A DNA stretch of 64,000 bases from Vermamoeba vermiformis (GCA_045837725.1 JBEWZL010000123.1:372001-436000), one strand, 5' to 3'; counted from the stretch's first letter, positions 1-55,469 are shown. The notes: generated by a model from the letters alone, not told the origin. Program-made: numbers and translations.

Positions 1-332
1 ATCTCCATCTTGCTTTGCACAAATGTAGAATTCCGGTGCAATCCAGCTGGTACTCAATAGTGCATAATTTATAAACCAATAATGGATTTGTGCTGTACTC
101 TACGAGTTCCGTGAAAATAAGTGGTCTAAAAGGAAAAAAAATCCGAGCTTTGCCAATACATGGATATTCCAGCCACGAAATTTCCCACGTTACCCTGGTT
201 GATCACGCGCGTGGATCCACCGATCTGTCTTTGTTTGCTATTGGTAAACCCTGTACCGTAACTTCCTTGGTGTACTCAGTGTACCGTAGGACAACAAGCA
301 GCGTTGCTAAATTGTGTTATTATGCGCATTTA

Positions 333-7391: not shown

Positions 7392-10300
7392 TTAGTCCTC
7401 GTGTTTTTTAATCGCAGCAAGGTAGTCAGCGTTGAGCCAAGCAAATCCTAACATTGGAACCTCATCGTGCTGATGTTTTGGACGAGGTTCTGTGGCATGG
7501 CTAGCACACGATTCGTAGGCTACAAAGTACCAAGCTGCTGCCTTTGCCTTCTTCTTCGTTTGAAATATCTGATCAAAATCGATTACTAAATTAGGAAAGC
7601 TTAAAAAGTGTTGCAAAGGTACCTGCTTGCGAGTCATTAGGATCGAAGCCTTCGTTAAATTTATGAATGTAATATTCCCTAACTTGCGATAACCTCGTGC
7701 CTAGATTTTCTCTCGTAGCACTATTGATTTAACGGGCAATTAGCGAATGCAGATCCAGATCTCGAAATTACGTACTAATCTTTTTTCTTGGCGAATCGTT
7801 TGTTGCATTTTAAGATATTTCCGGTCAATATCTCCGCTTCGCTTTGAATGCCGTATTGTCGTAATATCCTCATATTATCTTCAACATATTCCAAATAGAT
7901 TTGTGTCGCTTCTTCGACGTATTCCTCAAACCCTAGAAAAAATCATCATTTCCAAATTAGGAAATCCATCCAAACGTGAAACAACAACTAATAAATACCT
8001 TCGCATAATAGAGACTTATCAACCTCAATCTTCTTGATGTTCGGAGCAGTGTTCTTTCGGTGTTTGACCAGACGCCTGAATGACTCGGCAATGAAGCTCG
8101 TGCCCTTAAATGAAATCTCCCTATTCTTTTCCATATACTCAGGATACTGCTTCGCCCAATCACCGTCCGTGTAGTCCGCTGGCACACCTGCAAATATATG
8201 CCCATGTCAAACTAGTTGTTTGGATTGAAATTTGCAGATTGCCAAATATGGCGTACCTGTCTTAGCAAAGTCAATGGCAATGGCGTGCTTTGCAGCCATA
8301 TCGCGACACTTGTCAGTTGACGCGTCAAGTCCGCGCTCTTCAGCATAAGCTTGCCAAGACGTGTCAATCAAGCCAATCACATCGCGATCAATGTACTCCA
8401 AAAAGAAGTTCGCGACGTCTTTGGGATATTTCACGGGTCTTTGTTTGACAACAGGCTTGGGATATTCCGCTGGCTCGCACGTGGTTGGTGGAATCAATTC
8501 TTCGTCCCAAATAACCGTATAAAAATCTCCGTCCAAATCTCCACCTGAGAAGATCCTAATTAGCTCTAGCCCCTATTTATATTATAATATAGATAGATTC
8601 TTACCGGCCATCATGTCCATTAAAGGCCTGGATCCGTCTCGCGGAAAAACTACAACGTTTTCCAGATGCGACAGCCGTTCTTTGTCAACGCATTGAACGA
8701 CTCGGATGTCACCTGGATCTAAGCAAGGATTTCGCGTGACGAATGCTTTTTTCTTAATGACTTCACCTGAATCGCGAAAGAATTCAGTGTACGGGATTTT
8801 GCCAAAAAAGGAAACTTACCGTTCACTTTAACGTAGATTTCGTTTGATCCAAGGCATTTGTATTCATCAATAACACCGTATAATAATGCTCCCAAAGGCA
8901 CGTGTATTCTAGTACGGCTGATCATGTCGTTCATCAACTTTTGACAGTAAAGTCGGATCACGGTGCGCAAGTAGGGCTCGTTGAGTCCAAACAAGGGCAA
9001 ATAGTTTGATAATAATTGTGTCGTATAATCATTCGGATTAGTGTTCCTAACGAATTCGATGCATTGTTCAGCGGATCTGTTGCCTTCTAATATTTGCAAT
9101 GCCTCTTCAATCATTTGTCTTTCTAGCCGTTCAAATCCTTTGGTCGACTTAACTCCCAATGTGACCAATAGCGTAATTATTTGCCTATTTAAGTAAGCAG
9201 GATGATACGACGAGTATCCGACGATTTCAAACTCGGTGTGATCGCTGTCAAATTTCTTCATTGACTGTCGCAAATGTACTTTTCGTTCAGTGAAAGTTGG
9301 GTCTACGACAACCATGCCTTTATAGCCTTATGCAAACCGTCATTGGATTTCCAAATAAGGAAAGTGATTGAAAGCATCCTACCTTTAAACCTTATTTGGA
9401 ATGCTGCAGGCAAGAATTTCAACTTGAGTTCGTTCTTAATATGCACCGCGTATTCGAGTGATATTTTGCCAATGCCATCGGTGAAGTTGTACTCGACTGT
9501 CTTGCCATTCTTAGTGGCTTTCACTTTGACATCGGGAATTTCTTTGTAGTCGTCAGGACTGAGATGGCCCACCGCATAAGTCGTAGTAAAACACTGAGCT
9601 AGAATAGTGCCATATCAACATACGTGTCAAAGTGTCACAAATGTCAATGTGTCAAATTTTTCCTTACCGATCCGAGCACCAACTTTGGCGGGAATTTTCT
9701 CCTTCGAGAAGGTTCCCAAGTCATTAAATATGTATTCTCGGGTGATTAGCCGTCCTTCGTGCATGAATTCTGTCATAAAGAAGCACGAGCGCTGTCGTAG
9801 CTGCGAGTTTGAATACGCCAAAAATTGAAATAGCCTTTTGTGGTAAAAAGACATGTTAGCTCGCATAATGATTTATATTATGACGTACCATTGCCCTATG
9901 TATATTCCATGATCCCTTATCTTCCTAAATTGAGCCTTGATATCTTTGCCCATGTTGTTCATTGGTCCAAAGTTCTCGTCCAAAAAGACGACACGGAGAA
10001 AATTGAAAATATTCTGCGGGTACTTTCGTTGAACTCTATTTGATACTTCATAAAATACTCCTTCAATATAGTACTTTGACGGCGTAATAATCAAATGAAA
10101 AGTTGGCACTAGATTCGGATTTGAAGGGTAAAAAGTTGAAGGCACTTTGTCAAGTTGCTTAGGGTTGATCGCCTTGACCATTTCGACTTTTTCTTGGAAT
10201 ATTCGCAAAGGATTTAATATTTCTTCTTCTTCTTGCATCATTAGCAGCGCACGTAATCGGATGTTTTCGGGAGTTTGCGAAATTTCCTCGAAGAATTCGT

Positions 10301-11486
10301 TTGTGACGAGATATCTGTTGGTGTTTTTGCTAACCAAAGCCTCTATTAATAGTACTATTTCAATAGGCATCTCCTTAGGAAATTGCGTTATCTCTGTAGC
10401 ATTGTCACTGATCCGCAGTTTTTGCTCCACGTTGTTTTTGTACTTGATGATATTATGCAAGATGTTACTATCCTTGGGCTCAATAAATAGCAAAATAGCA
10501 TTGCACTTGTTATTTTTGACCAAAATATCCATCAGCGATCGTCGTACTTTGCCATCTTCATAAAATATTTTCGGCGCGCTTCTCCACTGGATCGAGAATT
10601 CTCGTTTCGTCAAATTGATCCTATAAATATCCTTCAATAGTATTTCTATTGAATACGAATGGCTATTTGTGTTTAAACAAAATGTTAAGGCACGGTAAGT
10701 ATGGCTAATACTGATCGATTCAATATCCTCGCTTGAACTCTTATCCACGACATTGAATGTCTCGCTATCGGATAAATATCCGATCAAGAAATAATTCTCC
10801 GTGGATTTAATCACTCGCTTCTTTTCTCTCTTTTCTTCTCCGTCATTAGATCCGTTGGAATCTTTCTGATCTTGATTGTTTCGGCTCTTGACGGGGTAAT
10901 TTATCATTATTTGTTTTCCTTTTATGAAAATATTCTTATTCTTTAGCTTGGCGACCATATCTCTGCTTAAGGAATCGATTAAATTTTTGACCTCGGAATT
11001 GGATCCATCAAAGATAACGCTCTCTAAATATTTAATCGCCCAAAAACAATTGATATGCTTATTATACTTACTCCTGACAATTTATAAAGGATATAAATGC
11101 GTAATTATTGTCAGACTTGAGCGTAATCTCTCGGACCGTTCCAAACTTTGAAAACGTGTTTCTTAAGTCCTCCTCGCTTACATTACGCGCCAAACTACCC
11201 ACAAATACATCTGCATAATAAATTTTCTTAATAATTGTCATATTGATTCCAACACGGCGGTTGAATTTCAACACGGCGTGCTGACTGAATCACACCTTGT
11301 TTGCTATTGTTATAATACGGAGCTCGATGATTGCTTTGAATGTTAGTCTTTACTGAAGCTATCAATGTATTAATATAGGGAGATATTATGAGGATTTAAG
11401 TGCGTACGTGCTTGAGCAGATCTGCCTTCTTGTTGATTATTGTTCGTAGGCAATCTCTTAGGCCTATAAGTGCCAGAAGAGCTCAT
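7392..11486 (-). CDS. Eukaryotic cellular RNA-dependent RNA polymerase (RNAi type) with an N-terminal RRM
   Basis: RRM (VFVGSLARNVSEEDLRNTFSKFGTV). RdRP motifs SNRVQR, FLRVVFLDE, FLAYSNSQLR, FTDGIGKIS, AFQIRFKG, LNRQIITLL and catalytic GGDLDGDFYTVIWDEELIP. Also AIDFAKTG and C-terminal FAW. Confidence 0.95.
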
Positions 11487-17193: not shown

Positions 17194-20100
17194 ATGAGTA
17201 CAGAGAATGGTACAAGTCCACGACCTGGTGGACCACCACCAATGAATAACGTATCCGGTCCAGGTCCAAAGAAGGCCCTCGTCAAATCTGGGCTAAAGAA
17301 GATGCCAGCAAATATGAAACAGCCTCCTAAAAATAATATTGGTCCTAAACAACCCATTCCGAACCCTCAACCCGTCACATCTGGTGAAACAGTGAACGAA
17401 AGTGACCCAGCACTGGAGAATAATAAAAATAAAATCAAAATATTCGAGCAAGCGGCTCAGGCAGAGTCAAAAGCAGCCTCGACTACAACGGCGAAAATAC
17501 CACCCAATCCAGCATTACAAAGAGCCGTTTCAGCGAGTTTCAAAAAGACCGGTGTAATCCCTTCAACGAATCCACCTCCAGCAAATCCCAAAGCAAATAC
17601 AGGACTTAATTTAGTATCACCTCGATTAAATAACAGCGCACCTGCACAGCCTGTATCGCCTCACAGTCCGAAGGTTGAAAATGCTAATAATTCCACCCTC
17701 GAATCTCCAAAGGTTAAAGTGGACCCGAATTTTGTAAAGAAAGATCGTCCTTTATCATCTCATAGCAATAGTGAAAAAGAAGGCGATAAATCACCTCACA
17801 CGAGCAATCAAAATACGGAACGATCGACATCGCGAAGATCAAGCTCGGCCAGCTTGCCTTTAAGCAACGAAAATACCGACAGAGATGAAGATTCATTTGC
17901 CATCGATAAGGCGATACCAGAAGAAGATTCTTCAAGTTCCGAATTGGAAGAGAAAATCGAAGCGGATGAGGCCCAGACGAGGATGCTAGAATCGTTTAAA
18001 GCCCAAACCGGTGAGAATAAGCCAGTTGAAGAAAAGAAGGCTCTAAATTTGCCAGTAAATAATAAGCCACGAGCACAATCAAAAACTGTTCGAAGGGTAA
18101 GAACGATCTGACAAGAAATTCGCTTAGTTCGTTCTAATATTAATTTAATTATTAGCTTGAGAAAGTACCGCCAGTATTAGAGGAGGATTTCGAAGATGAA
18201 TGGTCAGAGTTTCCAGTCAAGTAAGAAAAAAAATATTTACCTATTATTAGGGCCGGTCCTGATCTTTTAAATTTATCTGCAGCAAATACACCTTTAAAAT
18301 CATCCAAGAACCTGATGAGTATATTATGCCCGGTGAATGTGTAGCAATTCGAGTAAGTCCCCTTTTTGGTCTCGTACTTTTGGATGTGCTCCCAGCTCGA
18401 AATTATTTTCCCGCTCGCCGATGAATTGCTTATAATTACTAATTCATCATCAAATATGACGTCTATAATATATTTGAATTTATTATATGACCTGAAACGA
18501 TTTTAATGTATGATTTTCCATAAAGGTTCGAATATGCGAGGACAAATCAAAAGAGCACAAAGTAGCAGTGGCCATGTTATACAGATACGAAGGCGATAAC
18601 GGAATTTTATTCCAAATTAAGCTCGAGAACGAAGCCAAGTTTTATTTGTTGATTCGCCTTGTCATCGATGATGAGAATCATTTGGTGTTGGCTCGCAAAG
18701 GTAAGAAAAAATCGCAAAATGTCTTCTTATACAAAATCCTATAATATACAACCCATTTATAGCCTTGACTATGCTTGACATTTATTCTGATTATTTTCTG
18801 CGGTTAGATCCGGCGGTCAAAGAGTATGATCGAGTAATTGAAACACAAGAGTATACCAAGGCCAGAGGCTCGGGATATTATCGACCTAAATCACAAGCAG
18901 TCTATAACTCTATTGGCGCACTTATCGACAAGAATGATTTGATGCTCTACTTGAAAATCGCGCAAAGGTCACCGGTTGAGAACACTGATGCCGCGCCCAA
19001 ACCTTACAGAATCTTATTGAACGCGTTAAATCAGTTCAATGCCTCCGACCACTGCGTCACAAGAAAGATTCTGGCCGTTGATCGAATTACCCGAAACACA
19101 AAACAGGCCCGAAAAGAATTGATCTCGTTTTTCCGATCGTTCGATCACCGAAGCTCAGAAATGGACGACAAATTGACTGCACTGGAGAAAACTACCGTGC
19201 CCGCGGAACAAGAAGAAATCATGAAAGACATCACCGAGTTGTTGTTCAAGGCTTCAAAGGAGAACCTTCGCAAGCAGTACTTTAACGGCAAAACTCTGCT
19301 GCATTATGCGTGCATTTTGGAAGCAAAACAATACGTCGCTTATCTGCTCAGCAAGTGCGATGCCAACGACGTCAATTTGTTTGACATGAACACTCGTGGA
19401 GCGCTATTTTATGCCGTTGAATCAGGCAACAAAGAGTAAGTCTAAATCTCATATTAATATAGTTTACTAAAATCTATCGTAGTATTGTTGAGATGCTGGT
19501 GACTAAAGGCGCCAATGTTTCATGCAATGATACACGAGGGGAATCAATCCACAACGTCGCGTTGCGGTTGAACAGAATTGAAGTCTTGCATTACTTGAAC
19601 GAGCGAAACAAACCGGCGACCACTTCGGTGGCTCAATCGCTCACTGAGACTCAATTGCACGATGCAGCTCAGAACGATAACGTGGAAGAACTGCAACAGC
19701 TGTTGTCATCTAAAAACAGCAACGTCAATGCTAAGAACATTCTCGGTGCTACTTCACTGCATATTGCTGCTTCAAAGTAAGTCAGTCGTAATAATATAAC
19801 CTCGTATTCTAACACTCTCAGGGGTTCGTTGACCGCTATCGATCAACTTTTGAATGCCGGTGCCAATCCTAATGAAAAAGACAACGATGGCTCGACGCCT
19901 TTGCACCAAGCAGTTGCCTCGGGCAGACTCGATATTGTGACTGCGCTTCTCAAGGCTAAAGTAGATGTCAATGCCAAGGACGCCACGGAAGCAACTCCGC
20001 TGAACCTTGCTACGATGCAGAAACAAGACGAAATTGCGTTGTTATTGCTCGAGCACGGCGCTGATCCGAACATTCCCAACGAACAAGCTTTCACTCCTTT

Positions 20101-23100
20101 GCATTACGCCAGTGCCTACGGTGAACTTAAGACTGCTAGCGCATTGATCGAGCGAGGAGCCAACATCAAAGCTGTCACCAAGGAAATGTCAACACCGCTT
20201 CATCAAGCCGCGTTCAATGGTCACGCTAACGTCGTGAAACTGTTGATAGAAAAAGGAGCTGAAATGGAGTTTGGCAACAGCAAGGCATTGCACTTGGCTT
20301 GCTTCAATGGACACGCCTCTGTGGTCAAGATTTTGCTCGAGAAGGGCGCCAATGTAAATTGCACTGACGAAGAGCTTTCAACTCCCTTGCACAAAGCAAC
20401 GTACAATGGCCACGTTGAGTGTTTGAAGATTTTAGTCGAACAAGGCAAAGCAGATCTGAACTGCAAGGACGCGGAAGGTGCTACACCTCTCCATAAGGCT
20501 GCATTCTCAGCTAAGGATGAGTGCCTGCAGTACTTGTTGGCACAAGGCGCTGAAGTTGACTCCGAAGACAACTGTCAAGGAACATCACTTCACAACGCTG
20601 CTTTCCGAGGTCATGCTACTACCGCTGAAATGTTGATCAAAGCCAAAGCAAACATCAACAAAGGTGATGATCGAGGTGCTACACCACTCCACTTGGCTGC
20701 GCTTGGCAACGGTCTGGACTGCCTCAAATTTTTGATCAAACAAGGTGCCAACGTTGAGGCCGTTGATGTTGGTGGCATGACTCCCTTGATGTACAGTGTT
20801 GGTCACTTGGAGATCGTCAAATTCTTGTTAACGCAAAAGTTGGACGTTAACCGAACTGACAAGAAGGGACGAAGTGCTCTGCTACATGCCATAGTCAAGC
20901 GACACGAAGAAGTCGCGAAAGTTTTGATTGAACACGGTGCTGATCCCAACAAGAAGGACAACGAAGGACGAATGCCAATCGAGCTCGTCTCGCCTGCCTT
21001 CAAGGAGATCATCAACGATGCTGTCAAAATGCGTCAGAAAGGTGCTTTCGACGAAAAGACTCAAGCCAAGTTCGCCGAAGCCGTCAAGCGATTCAATGCC
21101 AAGCCTAAGACTGGTGTCGAGTACCTCATTAGCGAAGGCTTGGTGGACAAGAACAACTTTGCTCAAGACATGGCCTTCTTCTTGCAAAAGGAGAACGATA
21201 ACCTGTCACGCAAGGTTATGGGCGACTACCTTGGCACCAAGGAGAACTTTGAAGTCCTCACAGCATTTACCAACAGACTCAACTTCGAAGGCATGGAGTT
21301 CGATCAGGCTTTCCGTGTCTTTTTGACCAAGTTCCGCTTGCCTGGTGAAGCTCAAATGATTGATCGATGCATGCAACGCTTCTCGGCCCGATACTGCGAA
21401 AACAATCCAGACTTCTTCCCCGACGAGGACACTGCCTACATGATTGCTTTCTCGTTGATTATGCTTCACACGGACGCGCACAACCCGAACGTGAAGGATA
21501 AGATGACGAAGAGTCAGTTCATCAAGAACAGTCACGGTTTTTGGGCTGGTCAAGACCCTCCACAAGATTTCTTGGAGCGAATGTACGATAGCGTCGTTGA
21601 GAACGAAATCAAGCTTGATAGCGACGATCTGGTCGTCATCGAGAAGAAAGGATGGCTGAAGCGACAAACCGACGGTCGTAACAAGAAATGGAGCCCGCGG
21701 TACTTTATCCTTAAAGATCAAGTGCTCTATTACTATAAATCGCAAGAAGACAGCGACAACCCCAACGGCTTGATTCCTTTGGAGAACGTTGTTGTGAAGC
21801 CTCGTGAAGAAAAGAAGAAGATCGTTCGATTCGCTTTGGTTGCTGCCGACGGTGGACCAATCAAGTCCTGCAAGATGGAGAAGGGCAAGTTGATGCAAGG
21901 AAACCACAAAGAACTCTTCTTTACTGCTGAAAACTCGAAAGACAACGAAGAGTGGATCGAAGCTATCAGAGGTAGCATTGCCAACAATCCTTTCTACCAC
22001 TTGATTACGAAGCGTATGGAAGAGCTCGCGAGCGCAAAGTCGACGAACGCTGCGGTCAACTTCCAAGAGATCTACGACCTGGCTCTGTTGTGCCAATCTT
22101 GCGCGTCAGGAGATGAAGCAGCCATTAAAGACACCTACGGACCGTACGTGCTCGTGGTCGACCAAGTCATGGGCATCAAATTCATGGTTATCACGAACGG
22201 AGACTACAAGAGAACGCAGATCGTATTGACAGGTAAGGGACAATTTTGTTTCCTAGCGGAGGTGATGCTCGGGACTCGAAAAACGGAATTCAACGATGGG
22301 TGCATGGTGCACTTGGTAGCACGTCCGCTTCGCATGCGGGAGGTACGGGGATCGAAGCCCTGTGCATCCAACATTTTTTTTATTTTTTCGCAGCCCAGTA
22401 CCATAAATTCTTCCCGCCACCTCCGCAGCTACCGACAAAACTCGATTTGATACCAACAAATTGTGTTATAATTGGGGTTGATGCAGAAAAAAAGCACTCC
22501 TAATTGAGTGACAAACCTAATCGCCAGTCCAGTCTGACCCAAACTTTCTTTTTTTTACCTTTTTTGCTACTTTCTCTGATATGCTCGTACTAACGCACGT
22601 TGTAGGTGATATGTTTGACGAATCTGGCCTCAAGGCGTCGCAGCTTAGCGATCCGAGCTTCGACTTCAAAAACTTCTTCAAGATCGAGACCATCGTCGAG
22701 CAACTTCAGAAGGCCGTTGAAAGTCACTTGCTCAAGGGCTACGCTCTTCAACTTATCGGTCACTCGTTGGGCAGCATCATCTCGGTGTTCTTGGCGATCA
22801 AGCTCCAACAGAAACGATACAAGGTTACCAAGATCGTTAACTTTGCGCAGCCCAACTTCATGCTCGAGCAAGATGCAAGCACCCTTCGCACGCTCAGTGT
22901 AATGCGCATCGTTGACGTGAAGGACCCGATCTATGACACGTTCAACGGTCACATCCACGTTGGCTACCAATTAAGTTTGGTCGGCAAGAGCGCTTACTGC
23001 TTCGAGAACAAGATGGACTTGCACTCACTGTCATCGCCCACTGTGCCCATGAACAACAATGGCACTGCTCTGACCCGCGAGAGCAAAGACGTTCAGCGAC

Positions 23101-23303
23101 CAATGACATCCAGCGCTCCTGGCGGTAAAACACGCACCTCGATGGACAAGCCAGCAGGTTCTGTCTCGAAGAAAGAGAAGAAGGTTAATCTTGAAGAGCG
23201 AATACTGGTCCATAAAATTGAAAGCTACTTGAAGAACCTCAAGCACAAGCTGAAAGGCGCGCCAACAGCGATCCAGCCTCGCGACTTGAAACAACACCTG
23301 TAA
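17194..23303 (+). CDS. Arf GEF: Pro-rich N-terminus, ankyrin repeats, Sec7, PH and a C-terminal class-3 lipase-like domain (SecG-like)
   Basis: Many TPLH ankyrin repeats. Sec7 FRLPGEAQMIDR and LIMLHTDAHN; PH KKGWLKRQ...WIEAI. Lipase-like GHSLG, KDPI and HKIESY. Intron 22233-22605 joins PH to the lipase exon in frame. Confidence 0.9.
22298..22370 (+). tRNA. tRNA-Ala(CGC), inside an intron of the ArfGEF gene
   Basis: Acceptor stem GGGTGCA/TGCATCC-A with a G3:U70 pair. Anticodon arm CCGC-TT-CGC-AT-GCGG. T-loop GATCGAA as in eukaryotic tRNA-Ala. An oligo-T Pol III terminator follows. Confidence 0.95.
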
Positions 23304-47779: not shown

Positions 47780-47920
47780 TAATTATAACACCATATTAAT
47801 CTATAACATTAAATACAAATGTTCTATTTCTGCTCGATCTCGGAGAAAACACAATTTTCCGTTTGGCCGTGCTTGTTGTGATTTTAAACGAATAATCCTC
47901 TCGGCTTATTAATTACAATT

Positions 47921-48775
47921 ATGTCAACAACACCACGAGTCTACCTCATTACAGGCTGTTCAAGCGGGTTTGGCAGCTCCATAGCTCAGTACTTGCTCGA
48001 ACATGGCGAGTTTGTTATTGCCACCGCGAGAAATCAATCGACCGTAGCGCACTTTGCAGAAAAATATCCCGACAAAGCATTAAGTCTTGCACTAGATATT
48101 ACCAATCAAGAATCAGTTCATGCAGCGCTGGAGGCCTCGTTGAACAAGTTCAAGAAAATTGACGTCTTGATTAACAATGCCGGCAATGCTATTTATGGAT
48201 TAGCAGAATTCACATCGGACAGCGAGATTCGTGCGCAGATGGAGACCAATTTCTTCGGCACTGTTAGAGTGACCCAAGCAATCTTACCAATAATGCGCAA
48301 ACAAAACAGCGGTCACATCATTCAAATAAGCAGCGTGTCAGGTCAAAACGGATCGCAAAGCTTGCCGTTCTATTGCGCGAGTAAGTTTGCCCTCGAAGGA
48401 TTTTCCGAGGCATTGTCGCGGGAAGTGATCGGATTCAATGTTCGCGTGACAATTATCGAGCCAGGAGCCTTCAAAACCGATATGATGAATAAATCATTCA
48501 AACGTATCGAGAACAAACAAGTCCCATCGGTATATTCAACGCAAGTAGAGAAGATAAATCAACGAATGGACTTCATCCGAGACCACGCTCCTGGAGATCC
48601 AAAGAAGGCAGCTGCCGTCATCCATCAAATAGTACGATCAGATAATCCACCTCTTCGCTTGCCTATTGGTGCAGATGCGTTTCAAACAATCAGTTCGCAC
48701 GTGGAGCAACAGCGACTAGATCTTAAGAAGTGGGAACAAGTGTCAAAATCAACCAACTTGGACGAAGTGGCCTAA
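47921..48775 (+). CDS. Classical short-chain dehydrogenase/reductase (intronless)
   Basis: TGCSSGFG, NNAG, catalytic YCASK and EPG. Confidence 0.92.
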   Translation: MSTTPRVYLITGCSSGFGSSIAQYLLEHGEFVIATARNQSTVAHFAEKYPDKALSLALDITNQESVHAALEASLNKFKKIDVLINNAGNAIYGLAEFTSDSEIRAQMETNFFGTVRVTQAILPIMRKQNSGHIIQISSVSGQNGSQSLPFYCASKFALEGFSEALSREVIGFNVRVTIIEPGAFKTDMMNKSFKRIENKQVPSVYSTQVEKINQRMDFIRDHAPGDPKKAAAVIHQIVRSDNPPLRLPIGADAFQTISSHVEQQRLDLKKWEQVSKSTNLDEVA

Positions 48776-50951: not shown

Positions 50952-52848
50952 ATGCACGCGTGGTTGATCGGTTCGCGAGCATGGTATGGCGATTACGAAG
51001 ATCATATCAACCGTGACTGGGACCTCGTAGTAACCAGAAAGAATTTTATTGAAGCCCTCCAAGCTCCTGGATGTAAGAATTACGGCAGATCAAGGCATTT
51101 TATTTATTTATTTTCGTGGTTAATGACATTTTATTTTTATTTAATGCAATTAGTCGGTAATTAATTTATTTTTGTAAATAGCGGACTTTTTGATTTCTGG
51201 AATTTATTATGACTCGATCAAGGACGGCAAGTTCAGAGTCTTCACCAACTGCCCTCGTGCCATCGAAATTGAAATAGAAGATCGATATAAAAGCAACAAG
51301 ATTCTTAAATACTTGCAAGCATCTCCCGGAATCACCCAAATGGCGGATCTTAGTGCAAATTGGAAGTTGCGTCTCGAGCCAGTATCGAAGATTGCATGTG
51401 CCGTTATTAAAAGCAGTCATATATTCTTTCCTGTTAATTGGAGGAAAAACGGTAAGTATTACACCTGCTAGCAATTTCAGATCTAATCCGTTTTGGATGT
51501 AGCTCTTCAACTCGCTCAAATGAAGGACCATTTGAAAAAGAATTCGCTCAATGAGTTAATTAGCGAGGAAAAGCGTAAAAAAGAGCTCAATCAACTGTTT
51601 GAAGCTCGTTCCAGAGAAACTCTTGCACGGCTCTCTCGCGATGTCAAATCCACTGTGACACGAAACAATGGTATGACTCACTTATTATAGCAACATTATA
51701 CTAATAATATCGTCTTATAGAAGTGCTCTCGAATTGGGACAAATCAATTCTGAACAAATTCATTGCTGAGAATGAGAGTGACATGGACTACTTTCCAACC
51801 ACTGACTCACGTGTCAGCAAAGCGAAATTTCATTCGAGTACTGATGAAGACAAGTACGAGCTCATCGATGATCAGTTGCAGTTGATTTCACTCTTGTACT
51901 TCAACAGCAATCCGCAACTAAGGTTCGTCAATATGACACTTCACATCGCTATTTTCACCGTAGTAACTGTCATTTGTTAGCGTCAAAGACATTTACGTGC
52001 TGTCGCTCGAAACGTTCTGCTGTCAACAAATCGCTAGACTACCAAGCACTCACGACAAATTGTTCAGACGCACCGAGCTCGTGTATCGTACGTTGACAAC
52101 AGTACTCTCGTTTAATTATCCAATGCACTAACACAGCATCAGACCCAGAAAACTATGAGGCTAACAGCGAAGAAGGACGGAGGTTAGTTCCGGATGTACT
52201 TGCAGCTGTTCAAAAAGGTAAGCAGTACATCGTGACAGCGGTATGTTTTTCTAACGTTTTGTTTTAGATTTACCAAACGAAGAGTTCGAACTGGCCAGTG
52301 ACGAACAAGTCCAGAAATCAACACTCGGAAACTCGGTCATCCAATGGCTAGTTGACAACTGGTCAATGAAACTAATGACACCGTCACAGCAGTTCATCGA
52401 CTTTGTTTCGCAACGAGTTCCAGTCAATGTTTCGTTGCCTGCCTTGCCTGCGGAAATCCTCATGATTATCTTCAACAAAGCGTCAGATCACCTCACGTTG
52501 TCGGCCATTTGTGGACTGAACAAGCACTTCCGAGGTACCTTCAACACGAATGAACAGTGGAAGGCCCTCGTGTCGTTCATTTGGGGCACTGAAGCTGTGG
52601 ACTACGGCACCAATGTCAGCAGCAACAAGGGCCAATGGCTAAAAGTGTTCCAAGAACTGTACAACGAAGCCAAGGCCGGTCCGTTCTTGTACTGCAATCA
52701 CTGCCACGAGATTCACAGCGTGTTCTCTGATCCGCCGTACTCCTCTGATCGGCCAGAGTGGGAGTGGGCGTATTGCCCGTGTCCCGAGTGTGATGTTGGC
52801 AGTTGGGCTGCGTGTGAGTATCGTCACGAATTCGTGTACTGTAATTAG
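50952..52848 (+). CDS. Nucleotidyltransferase-like / F-box / Cys-His tail fusion protein, paralogue B
   Basis: LIGSRAW...RDWDLVV; IKSSHIFFPVNWRKN; F-box LPAEILMIIF...WKAL; CNHCH...YCPCPEC. Confidence 0.75.
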
Positions 52849-52902: not shown

Positions 52903-55469
52903 TTAATTGAGGTCCATATCTTTGCCTTCTTCTTTCACTTCTTCATTCAAGTTCGGAATGCTGTCGGGCGATTGTTGCTGTTGTTGAGACTCGGTGCCTT
53001 GACTGACAGGCAGGTTGTACGAGCGTTTCTCGGGCTCGTTCAAGTCCAGCGAACTTTCTTCCTCGTGCTTAGACTTGACATCTGCAACCGCTGCAATGGC
53101 GCCGGTCTTGTTGTACTTGACAATCTTGGCGCTGAACTTCTTCGTGGCGGTAGTTCTGCTGATGTTCACGACAGGCTTGGACGGGTCCTTGAACTTCATC
53201 AACATCGACGAGTCTTCATCGTTATCATCGTTAATGCCTAGAATGTAATCGATTTGATTCGCTTCGACTTCAATCGACATCAGATCCACGCGTTCATTTG
53301 AACTGGGGAGCTTCTCGTAATTGGACCTGTTGCACGTGCATTAGATAAACATAACTGCTTTATATTGTAATAACATACTTAGCCTTGGTCGTTAAGAATG
53401 CCAAGTAAGGACTGTCATAAACACCTAGGCCCCACGCTTCTTGATCACCGCGCGTGCTTTTAACGAACAATCTAGTGGGCCAATGTTAGTGCTCGTCTAG
53501 TGTAGAATCGCTTGTGTTACCTCGGATTGGCTTTCAATGTGCCGTGTACGAGGTCTTCGAGCCTCTTTGTCTTCGCTTTGCCGTGGCATAATCTGTTCCA
53601 GTTATCCATGATCATCTTCACGAGTTCCTATTTGCGAGTGTTACGGCTATTCACTCGGTTAATATTAGCTTACATCTTTCAGCAAGAACGAGCTGGTCAT
53701 TGTATCGCCCTTGATGATGGACATGAACTTCAAGTTGTACAGAGCAATGCGCACGATGTCTCGCCAGCCTATTGTTGCCAGTTAGTACACGCAATAGCTC
53801 TATGCTGCGTACCTTTGGGATACATCTGGAAGTGTTCTCGCGTGCAGTTGGTCTTTTTGTTACAGTTTTTACATAGAAATACATAGCCCCAGTCACCTAG
53901 TTGCGCACGCAAAGTTAGTACAGGGACGTTGTGTTCATGACATTAGGCACGTACCAGGCATTGGTGAGTAGTCGGGCTGCTTGGCCATACATCGCTGGTG
54001 GAACAAGAGGTTGCAACTGGTGCACAAAAGATCAACGCGCTGCGTCATTTGATCCTCGACTGATGGGCTCTTCGTGCCACAGTAACAACCTAAGTGTTGA
54101 GTTAGGTCCGCCAGTGACTCGTGCACAACACTTACCGTAGTGGAAAGCAATCACCACTTCACTTGACTCGCTGCTCGATGACTCGTAGTCGGCTATTAAG
54201 GGCTGTTAGTTGGTGGCGCACGTGCGAATTGAACACTTACCATCATCGTCCTCAGCACTCGAAGCACTTTCACCGATCTGGAACTGATCTAATTCATCGC
54301 CCGAGAGTTGAATGTTGTGTGGATTCAAAGTGTTGCTCGAAATGACGGGTGTCAGGCCGTATTCACGTGCCACTTGGTCACTTCTGCGGGGTCTACCTCG
54401 TTTTTTCTTCTCGCCATTGCTGTCATAAGAAGAGGCCTTGGGAGAAATCACGTGCTCACCAGGGCTAGGATTCTTGCGTGGACGACCACGAGGGCGTTTG
54501 GACGAGTTCGGTGCGCTGAAGGAGTGCAACACATCCGTTGAACTAGTTGTAGGGCTATTGAGAAGAGTGTTGACATTGGAGGTCGTTGCTTGATGCGTGA
54601 CAGGCACTGCAGGTGCTGACCACGTGTCAGTTGCGCTCGTGCCACTGCTCGACACTGAAGTCGCCGCTGGCAGCTGTGTGGGAGGATAACTCGCCACTAT
54701 ATTGCTCACGTTCATCGTGTTCGGGGCAGCGTTTAAAATAGTGCTCAATGTTTGTTTGTTCGCGTCAGCTGTGGTGGTAGTCGGCACAGCACTCGGAATC
54801 GGAGTTGGTACGTAGTTCATTGTCGTCATGCTGGATCCACCTGCGCTCTCTTCCAACAAGCTTTTCTTTGGTCTGCCACGCTTCTTAGGAATCTTAGGGG
54901 GCTTTTCAATCTCTTCACCTTTCTTTGGTCGGCCAGGCTTGCGTTTAATACCACCTGAGTTGGGTGACACGACCGGTGAGGTTGACGAGGGTGGCGATGA
55001 CAGTGGTGGTGCTTGTTGTGGCGAGGACACTTGTGGTATGTTAGTCACTGGCACTGACAGCGGTGCTTGACTGACTGTGTGGGACAAAGAGCGTTAGCAA
55101 GGCTTGGCCCGCGCACTAATCCTGCGTGTGACGTACCTAATGTATCGACCTTCATGGGCTCTGGTTGTGCAGGTTTTGTTTCAGCGGGCTTGATGACCGA
55201 GGCTAGAATGTCTAAATAACTCAAAAGTTAATCGCCGCGAGTCTGAAAATGTCGTGAAGCATTACTTGAGCGGATCGACTCGGCTAAGGTCGATGAAAAG
55301 GACTCATTTCCAGCTCTGTACAGTTGATATTAAAAATTATGAATTAAAGATATTGGACGTACTCGACAGCCGGTGAAGTAGATGTCTGGCAAAAATGAAA
55401 AATTAATTATTAATTTACTGCGCGTCAAAAAAAATCGAAAAAAATACGTACGAATCCATCTGTGGCCAT
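52903..55469 (-). CDS. Chromatin protein: four AT-hooks, PHD finger + winged helix (Polycomb-like/ASH2 type) and a chromo-shadow-like domain
   Basis: PGRPKK, RGRPKK, RGRPRK and RGRPRR; CYC...CTSC..FHQRC...CKNC; WRDIVRIALYNL; MDNWNRL; ILGINDD...MLMKFKD. Confidence 0.8.

Follow-up and report, generated by a model that had tools for sequence, protein, structure and literature searches.

What kind of chromatin protein is encoded on the minus strand at positions 52903..55469 of a 64,000-nucleotide stretch of Vermamoeba vermiformis DNA (GCA_045837725.1, JBEWZL010000123.1:372001-436000; the window)? A preliminary description of this locus had proposed AT-hooks, a Polycomb-like PHD-winged helix and an HP1-type chromo-shadow domain in one protein. 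The region is one real, spliced, conserved eukaryotic gene. Its product is predicted to run from a disordered N-terminal half with four AT-hooks through a PHD-winged-helix cassette to a small folded chromo-like domain and a disordered tail. Assignment of the cassette to the type found in Polycomb-like (PCL) and ASH2 proteins is firmly supported by sequence comparison and predicted fold. The protein may be a nuclear, DNA-anchored chromatin adaptor that combines hooks and cassette with a probable chromo-shadow-type interaction end, a reading that carries about half of our confidence.

A single spliced gene with AT-hooks and a PHD-winged-helix cassette

The gene model was built by joining short open frames from a reading of positions 55600-52800, and a 9-exon version with an internal ATG was extended by three 5' exons. 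The resulting coding sequence starts at an ATG at 55469-55467 and its stop codon ends at 52903, limits that match the preliminary description exactly. Spliced, the 12 exons give 1995 nucleotides and 664 amino acids with no internal stops. The 11 introns, each of 44-66 nucleotides, run GT..AG, and most contain a CTAAC-like branch site. The last exon, used as query in a word-based search, led to an orthologue, P0001 (659 amino acids, annotated 'hypothetical protein'), which is 82% identical over its full length and crosses every exon junction identically.

All 11 introns correspond to joints in intron-less contigs from close relatives (public runs X1 and X2, 95-99% alike). These runs are RNA by guess only, the entry 'between: not known' stands against several joints, and the shorter side of the two 5'-most joints has only 23 letters. 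One X2 contig (record 4) spans 52990-53897 with four junctions and links the last exon, which holds the C-terminal domain, with the exons of the winged helix and with the second exon of the PHD finger, while an X1 contig (record 2) connects exon 10 back to the AT-hook exon. Because spliced contigs join the C-terminal exon with the PHD exons, these exons cannot belong to separate genes. In raw RNA reads from a relative (X17 and X19, 90-95% alike), the joint 53767>53812 is present in 4 and 8 reads and the joint 53894>53953 in 1 and 7 reads, respectively. At intron 9 (53627-53676, minus strand) the joint in X1 is as modelled; in X2, X17 and X19 it is displaced by 1-2 bases, with 1-2 added letters between the sides, which points to a small indel or an alternative acceptor at this junction in the relatives. 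Every string quoted in the preliminary description is present in the spliced protein, FHQRC, PMPGDWGYVFLCKNC, WRDIVRIALYNL and IMDNWNRL within residues 382-476, and IDYILGINDD, MLMKFKDPSKPVVNIS and KFSAKIVKY within residues 549-595.

Sequence and fold searches with the cassette were run on P0001, which is 98% identical to the window protein in this region. With phmmer against all PDB sequences, residues 354-485 matched MTF2 (5xfr, E 2.9e-6), followed by Drosophila Pcl (5oqd, E 2.6e-4); subsequent rows were at chance level, and ASH2L was absent from the list at E<=10. The alignment to PHD2 of MTF2/Pcl shows the CYCG start, GD..Y.F.C..C, W.DI..L.LYNL and NW.RL, and these are PCL motifs named in the preliminary description. 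The Pfam PHD model gave E 0.0024 with the exon and 0.0054 with P0001, both short of the cut-off, and P0001 also falls short of the Pfam ASH2L-like_WH model. An AlphaFold2 model of P0001 (53-row alignment) has block-mean predicted local distance difference test (pLDDT) values of about 79-97 across residues 350-520. When it was compared with the PDB by Foldseek, all 17 matches at E<=1e-3 were PHD-winged-helix structures of Pcl, PHF1, MTF2 or ASH2L, the best being Pcl 5oqd (4.3e-9), PHF1 5xfo (1.0e-8), MTF2 5xfr (6.1e-8) and ASH2L 3rsn (1.2e-6). Forkhead domains came next in the list, at E around 0.05. The proposal of a PCL/ASH2-type cassette is therefore upheld by phmmer and by the predicted fold alike.

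The four GRP AT-hooks described earlier were also recovered (KRKPGRPKKGE, PKKRGRPKKSL, KRPRGRPRKNP and KKKRGRPRRSD). Three have an RGRP core and one a PGRP core, each with at least four Lys or Arg within 4 residues, and all four are kept in P0001 and in the fragment P0002. The Pfam AT_hook model requires 17.4 bits and scored only 10.9 (E 0.47). Such scores are common for this short motif, whose model has 13 residues, and it is the motif as such, with its conservation, that supports the hooks. Only 5 of the other 84 proteins scanned contain a hook-like motif, one each, so that the set of four is a peculiarity of this lineage. Residues 1-345 are Ser/Thr/Pro-rich and disordered in the AlphaFold2 model of P0001, with pLDDT <50 in the hook region, and a Pfam scan of the window exons and P0001 gave zero domain matches N-terminal of residue 350. 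Intergenic DNA adjoining the gene has a G+C content of 29-36%, compared with about 50% in the exons. Coordinates of the gene and its domains are collected in Table 1.

Table 1. Exons and protein features of the gene, in window coordinates
Feature	Residues	Position	Strand	Description	Basis
Whole coding sequence, exons 1-6		52903..55469 (whole)	-	55469-55452, 55385-55363, 55315-55266, 55211-55137, 55074-54241, 54192-54136	
Whole coding sequence, exons 7-12		52903..55469 (whole)	-	54089-53955, 53896-53813, 53768-53674, 53627-53521, 53471-53379, 53326-52903	
Four AT-hook motifs	99-109, 118-128, 248-258, 278-288	54377..54946	-	in low-complexity Ser/Thr/Pro-rich region	
PHD finger	C354 to C409	53862..54087	-	CxC-x18-CxxC-x4-HxxC-x19-CxxC; 58-nucleotide intron inside	Pfam, phmmer, Foldseek
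Winged helix	about 423-528	53314..53822	-	four exons; WRDIVRIALYNL helix, DNWNRL helix, strand hairpin FVKSTRGDQEAWGL	AlphaFold2, Foldseek
Chromo-like domain (predicted)	545-597	53107..53265	-	strands IDYILGI, SMLMKF, VNIS; helix RTTATKKFSAK; strand IVKY	
Disordered tail (predicted)	598-664	52906..53106	-		alignment of 7 family members, AlphaFold2 pLDDT

Relatives of the cassette and precedent for the architecture

A phmmer search of 1.84 billion representatives returned 85 proteins at E<=1e-3, nearly all aligned solely over residues about 350-520. The Pfam scan covered 63 of them, leaving out 22 short fragments. ASH2L-like_WH was found in 45 of the 63 (E<=0.01); together with PHD_ash2p_like, it matches most cassette relatives. 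The partner domains included SPRY in 18 of the 63, which are PHD-winged-helix + SPRY proteins of ASH2 type, GNAT in 10, RAMA in 3, zf-4CXXC_R1 in 2, chromo-type domains in 3 and Mtf2_C in 2, one of these two matches lying below the cut-off. The three proteins with chromo-type domains are from protists: P0016 (Nolandella sp.) has the cassette followed by Pfam-significant Chromo and Chromo_shadow, P0078 has a PHD match and a Pfam-significant Chromo_shadow, and P0077 has Chromo. Their identity to the window protein is only 33-35% in the cassette and, unlike the window protein, they have no AT-hook-like GRP motifs. Three relatives carry names, and all are amoebozoan: P0016, P0011 ('MTF2-like', Planoprotostelium) and P0027 ('polycomb protein Pcl', Pelomyxa), the latter two names being automatic annotation. 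The gene and its relatives present the cassette, through which two major chromatin systems (PCL-PRC2 and ASH2-COMPASS) read DNA, as a mobile module to which very different output domains are fused in protists. A separate relative, P0007 (817 amino acids), contains two PHD-winged-helix cassettes at residues 161-333 and 604-757, the first winged helix matching Pfam Forkhead, which suggests that the cassette can be duplicated inside one protein.

A maximum-likelihood tree of the PHD-winged-helix region was calculated with 56 rows, after 28 of 84 had been dropped for partial domain matches (P0077, P0078 and P0084 among them). Of its 53 inner branches 22 are open, leaving the backbone unresolved, and the placement of P0016 is likewise unresolved. 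The gene and P0001 sit on a long isolated branch (length 1.34), and the gene does not group with the sole Mtf2_C-bearing row. The tree therefore assigns the gene to no PCL, ASH2 or chromo-bearing subgroup.

Among known systems, the PCL proteins (Drosophila Pcl; human PHF1, MTF2 and PHF19) provide the best match for the cassette in sequence and fold. They also share with the window protein the order of cassette, linker and small chromo-like domain near the C-terminus (PMC8864842). In animal PCL proteins this chromo-like domain, which contacts SUZ12, is both required and sufficient for binding to PRC2, and mammalian PCL reads CpG through an RRKK stretch (PMC8864842). Since a PCL ends in a chromo-like domain, the order PHD2-winged helix to chromo-like domain is that of the C-terminal half of a PCL. 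The suggestion that the architecture lacks precedent thus does not hold: besides the animal PCL proteins, P0016 and P0078 are arranged similarly. The protein is a mix of known chromatin modules that is unusual, not unprecedented. A full-text search, with subscription journals and supplementary files outside its scope, found no description of this architecture in the literature. The combination of AT-hooks with a chromo-like domain would be a compact example, outside animals, of DNA-sequence targeting coupled to a chromo-type interaction domain.

The C-terminal domain and competing readings

In the adaptor that we propose, the AT-hooks would bind the minor groove of AT-rich DNA and the winged helix, as in PCL and ASH2L, would make a further contact with DNA. 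Most likely of a divergent chromo-shadow type, the C-terminal domain would form the protein-protein end together with conserved motifs in the tail, and this end may bind itself or bring to the DNA so bound a partner with a silencing or modifying role. Much of this proposal depends on what the C-terminal domain is. In the AlphaFold2 model of the last-exon translation of the window (4-row alignment), block-mean pLDDT is 75-92 over residues 21-70, with strands at 25-31, 40-45 and 53-56, a helix at 57-67 and a strand at 68-71. The model of P0001 has the same strand-strand-strand-helix-strand layout, with pLDDT 67-79. When the C-terminal model was ranked against known structures, chromo-family chains took the top ranks in both lists (4/4 and 9/9). 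The domain resembles the HP1-family chromo-shadow domains (HP1alpha/beta/gamma, Swi6, Chp2 and Rhino) in size and in having three strands followed by a helix, and by eye their xI[IL]Gx and hhhKW/FK motifs look alike, with no significant sequence match. The motifs xILGx and hhhKF/WK and a basic-hydrophobic helix are also common, again by eye, to the domain and the relatives' chromo-shadow domains. A chromo-like fold is likely on these models, while descent from chromo-shadow domains stands at about even odds.

Several results weigh against a chromo-shadow identity, and with it against the adaptor as we describe it. HP1-family chromo-shadow domains are the best structural matches, yet chemokines and Sac7d tie with them within 1 Z unit. 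Foldseek gave no match to the C-terminal model at E<=1e-3; the best E was 0.37, with pieces of Spt16 and FAK in the top rows, and chromo-shadow domains appeared only at E 2.3-3.2. Pfam Chromo_shadow (PF01393), Chromo and Mtf2_C matched none of the 7 family members at E<=10, whereas the same scan does detect the true chromo-shadow domains of P0016 and P0078, which reach the cut-off. A 4-member profile searched against PDB sequences returned no chromo protein, the best match being a glutamate ligase at chance level (E 0.64), and hhalign against two true chromo-shadow domains gave E 0.16 with a probability of 0.4%. In sequence, then, the comparisons made give the domain no statistically significant link to any family. 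The modelled helix is also short, with 11 residues followed by a strand. HP1 chromo-shadow helices end in ...EERLxW, which makes the dimer and the PxVxL site, and this end is missing in the family. Finally, it counts against the proposal that its DNA binding, partners and nuclear location are things we infer. An HP1-type chromo-shadow C-terminus, as originally described, is thus weakly supported: the chromo-like fold stands as a prediction, and the Pfam, Foldseek and hhalign comparisons do not bear out the assignment.

Further searches place the domain in a narrow group. It is limited to a few close relatives (P0001, P0005, P0006 and P0104-P0106, the last three being close fragments without a Pfam domain), and word-based searches for further full-length relatives returned P0001 alone. 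A local hidden Markov model of the domain run against 110 collected proteins recovered close orthologues only, the chromo-shadow region of P0016 scoring a non-significant E 15, and a search of the ESM Atlas with the domain gave no usable match.

This narrow distribution, the tie with chemokines and Sac7d, and the uniformly negative sequence comparisons would all suit a second reading, in which the C-terminal domain is a small beta-barrel peculiar to the lineage, without chromo or chromo-shadow descent, and the protein is an AT-hook/winged-helix factor that recruits through its tail motifs. The top ranks of chromo-family chains in both structural lists, and the recurrence of chromo-type fusions to the cassette among relatives, speak against it, and we regard it as possible though on the unlikely side.

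A full HP1-type hub, in which a helix-mediated chromo-shadow homodimer binds PxVxL-type ligands, is unlikely. Both the structural ranking and the true chromo-shadow domains that follow the cassette in relatives could be cited for it, but the helix is short and runs into a strand in both AlphaFold2 models, a Trp-containing C-terminal extension was found in none of the 7 aligned members, and Pfam gave no match. Because the chromodomain and the hinge are missing, the protein is not an HP1. A homodimer prediction for two copies of residues 12-80 from the translated last exon scored 0.01 against a mark of 0.32 and, with the fold of the partner uncertain, is evidence neither way. As a separate candidate, a methyl-lysine-reading chromodomain was considered and dropped. 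The aromatic cage of HP1 chromodomains has three positions, of which only two are matched by eye, by Y551 and F569, and the third aligns to D/P.

The protein could instead be a divergent orthologue of PCL in which Tudor and PHD1 have been lost and four AT-hooks stand in their place. PCL structures rank above ASH2L for the cassette in both sequence and fold, and the automatic names of P0027 and P0011 point the same way, but neither Tudor nor PHD1 was found by Pfam, and the corresponding region of P0001 is modelled as disordered. Across the 7 members the C-terminal domain draws no match to Mtf2_C (PF14061), and an hhalign comparison with two Mtf2_C segments gave E 0.67 over 4 columns. The Mtf2_C domains of P0084 and P0067 terminate the protein just past a YL[IV].W strand, whereas the window protein continues with a third strand, a helix and a conserved 67-residue tail. 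The gene also stands apart from the one Mtf2_C-bearing row of the tree, whose backbone is unresolved. No structure of a PCL C-terminal domain appeared in the VIA-align or Foldseek lists, and a family not listed there is not excluded by them. For the two Amoebozoa that it covers, PMC9018016 reports no E(z), ESC or Su(z)12, which weakens a PRC2 role if the host is amoebozoan. Taken together, we consider PCL orthology decidedly unlikely. A broader version is more doubtful again, namely that this is a pre-metazoan Polycomb-like protein, in which an ancestral PHD2-winged-helix and chromo-like factor already present in unicellular eukaryotes, with AT-hooks replacing Tudor and PHD1, would direct a methyltransferase complex, PRC2-like or other, to AT-rich DNA. 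If this is true, PCL-type targeting would have arisen long before animals. Should the C-terminal domain bind PRC2 or an HP1-pathway partner, this would bear on how Polycomb-like targeting arose.

In ASH2, SPRY, the part binding RbBP5 and DPY30, follows the PHD-winged helix. That the protein is a paralogue of ASH2 with a role in a COMPASS-like H3K4 methyltransferase complex is very improbable, for although the cassette has the fold of the ASH2L/Ash2 N-terminus (3rsn and 3s32, E about 1e-6) and the ASH2-type SPRY proteins are its relatives, Pfam found no SPRY in the window exons or P0001 and AlphaFold2 predicts nothing folded between or after the described domains.

The conserved tail and neighbouring features

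The protein-protein end of the adaptor would extend into the tail. DVKSK, LP[VI], P[NH]L[NH]E and a terminal K[ED]MDL[SN] occur in 7/7 aligned members, and S-[LVI]-DLN-x-PE (residues 616-623; 53029-53052, minus strand) in 6/7, P0006 being the member that differs. In the exon-translation model pLDDT is mostly <50 (segments 78-88, 106-119 and 127-133; block means 38-55), and it is <50 throughout in the P0001 model. A pattern of conserved short motifs in a disordered segment of 67 residues suits partner docking sites. The S-[LVI]-DLN-x-PE motif resembles the plant EAR repression motif (DLNxxP type) but is one residue shorter, and the idea that it recruits a co-repressor is pure speculation.

Downstream of the gene, a convergent 197-residue open frame with a Cys/His-rich end and no Pfam match lies at 52255-52848 on the plus strand. 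Its stop is 55 bases from that of the studied gene, and the 3' ends of the two therefore nearly touch or overlap. Elsewhere in the window, a 402-residue open frame at 9876-11081 (minus strand), the end of which aligns with positions 1-70 of Pfam RdRP (E 2.7e-8), is probably one exon of a larger gene of the RNA interference pathway that would encode a eukaryotic RNA-dependent RNA polymerase. The 889-residue open frame at 19781-22447 (plus strand) has many ankyrin repeats followed by Sec7 (E 1e-64) and a PH domain, and by its domain content is a predicted Arf guanine-nucleotide exchange factor with an unusual ankyrin N-terminus. Two ordinary metabolic genes are also present on the plus strand, a class-3 lipase-like open frame at 22521-23300 (E 1.8e-7) and a short-chain dehydrogenase at 47888-48772 (adh_short, E 9e-53).
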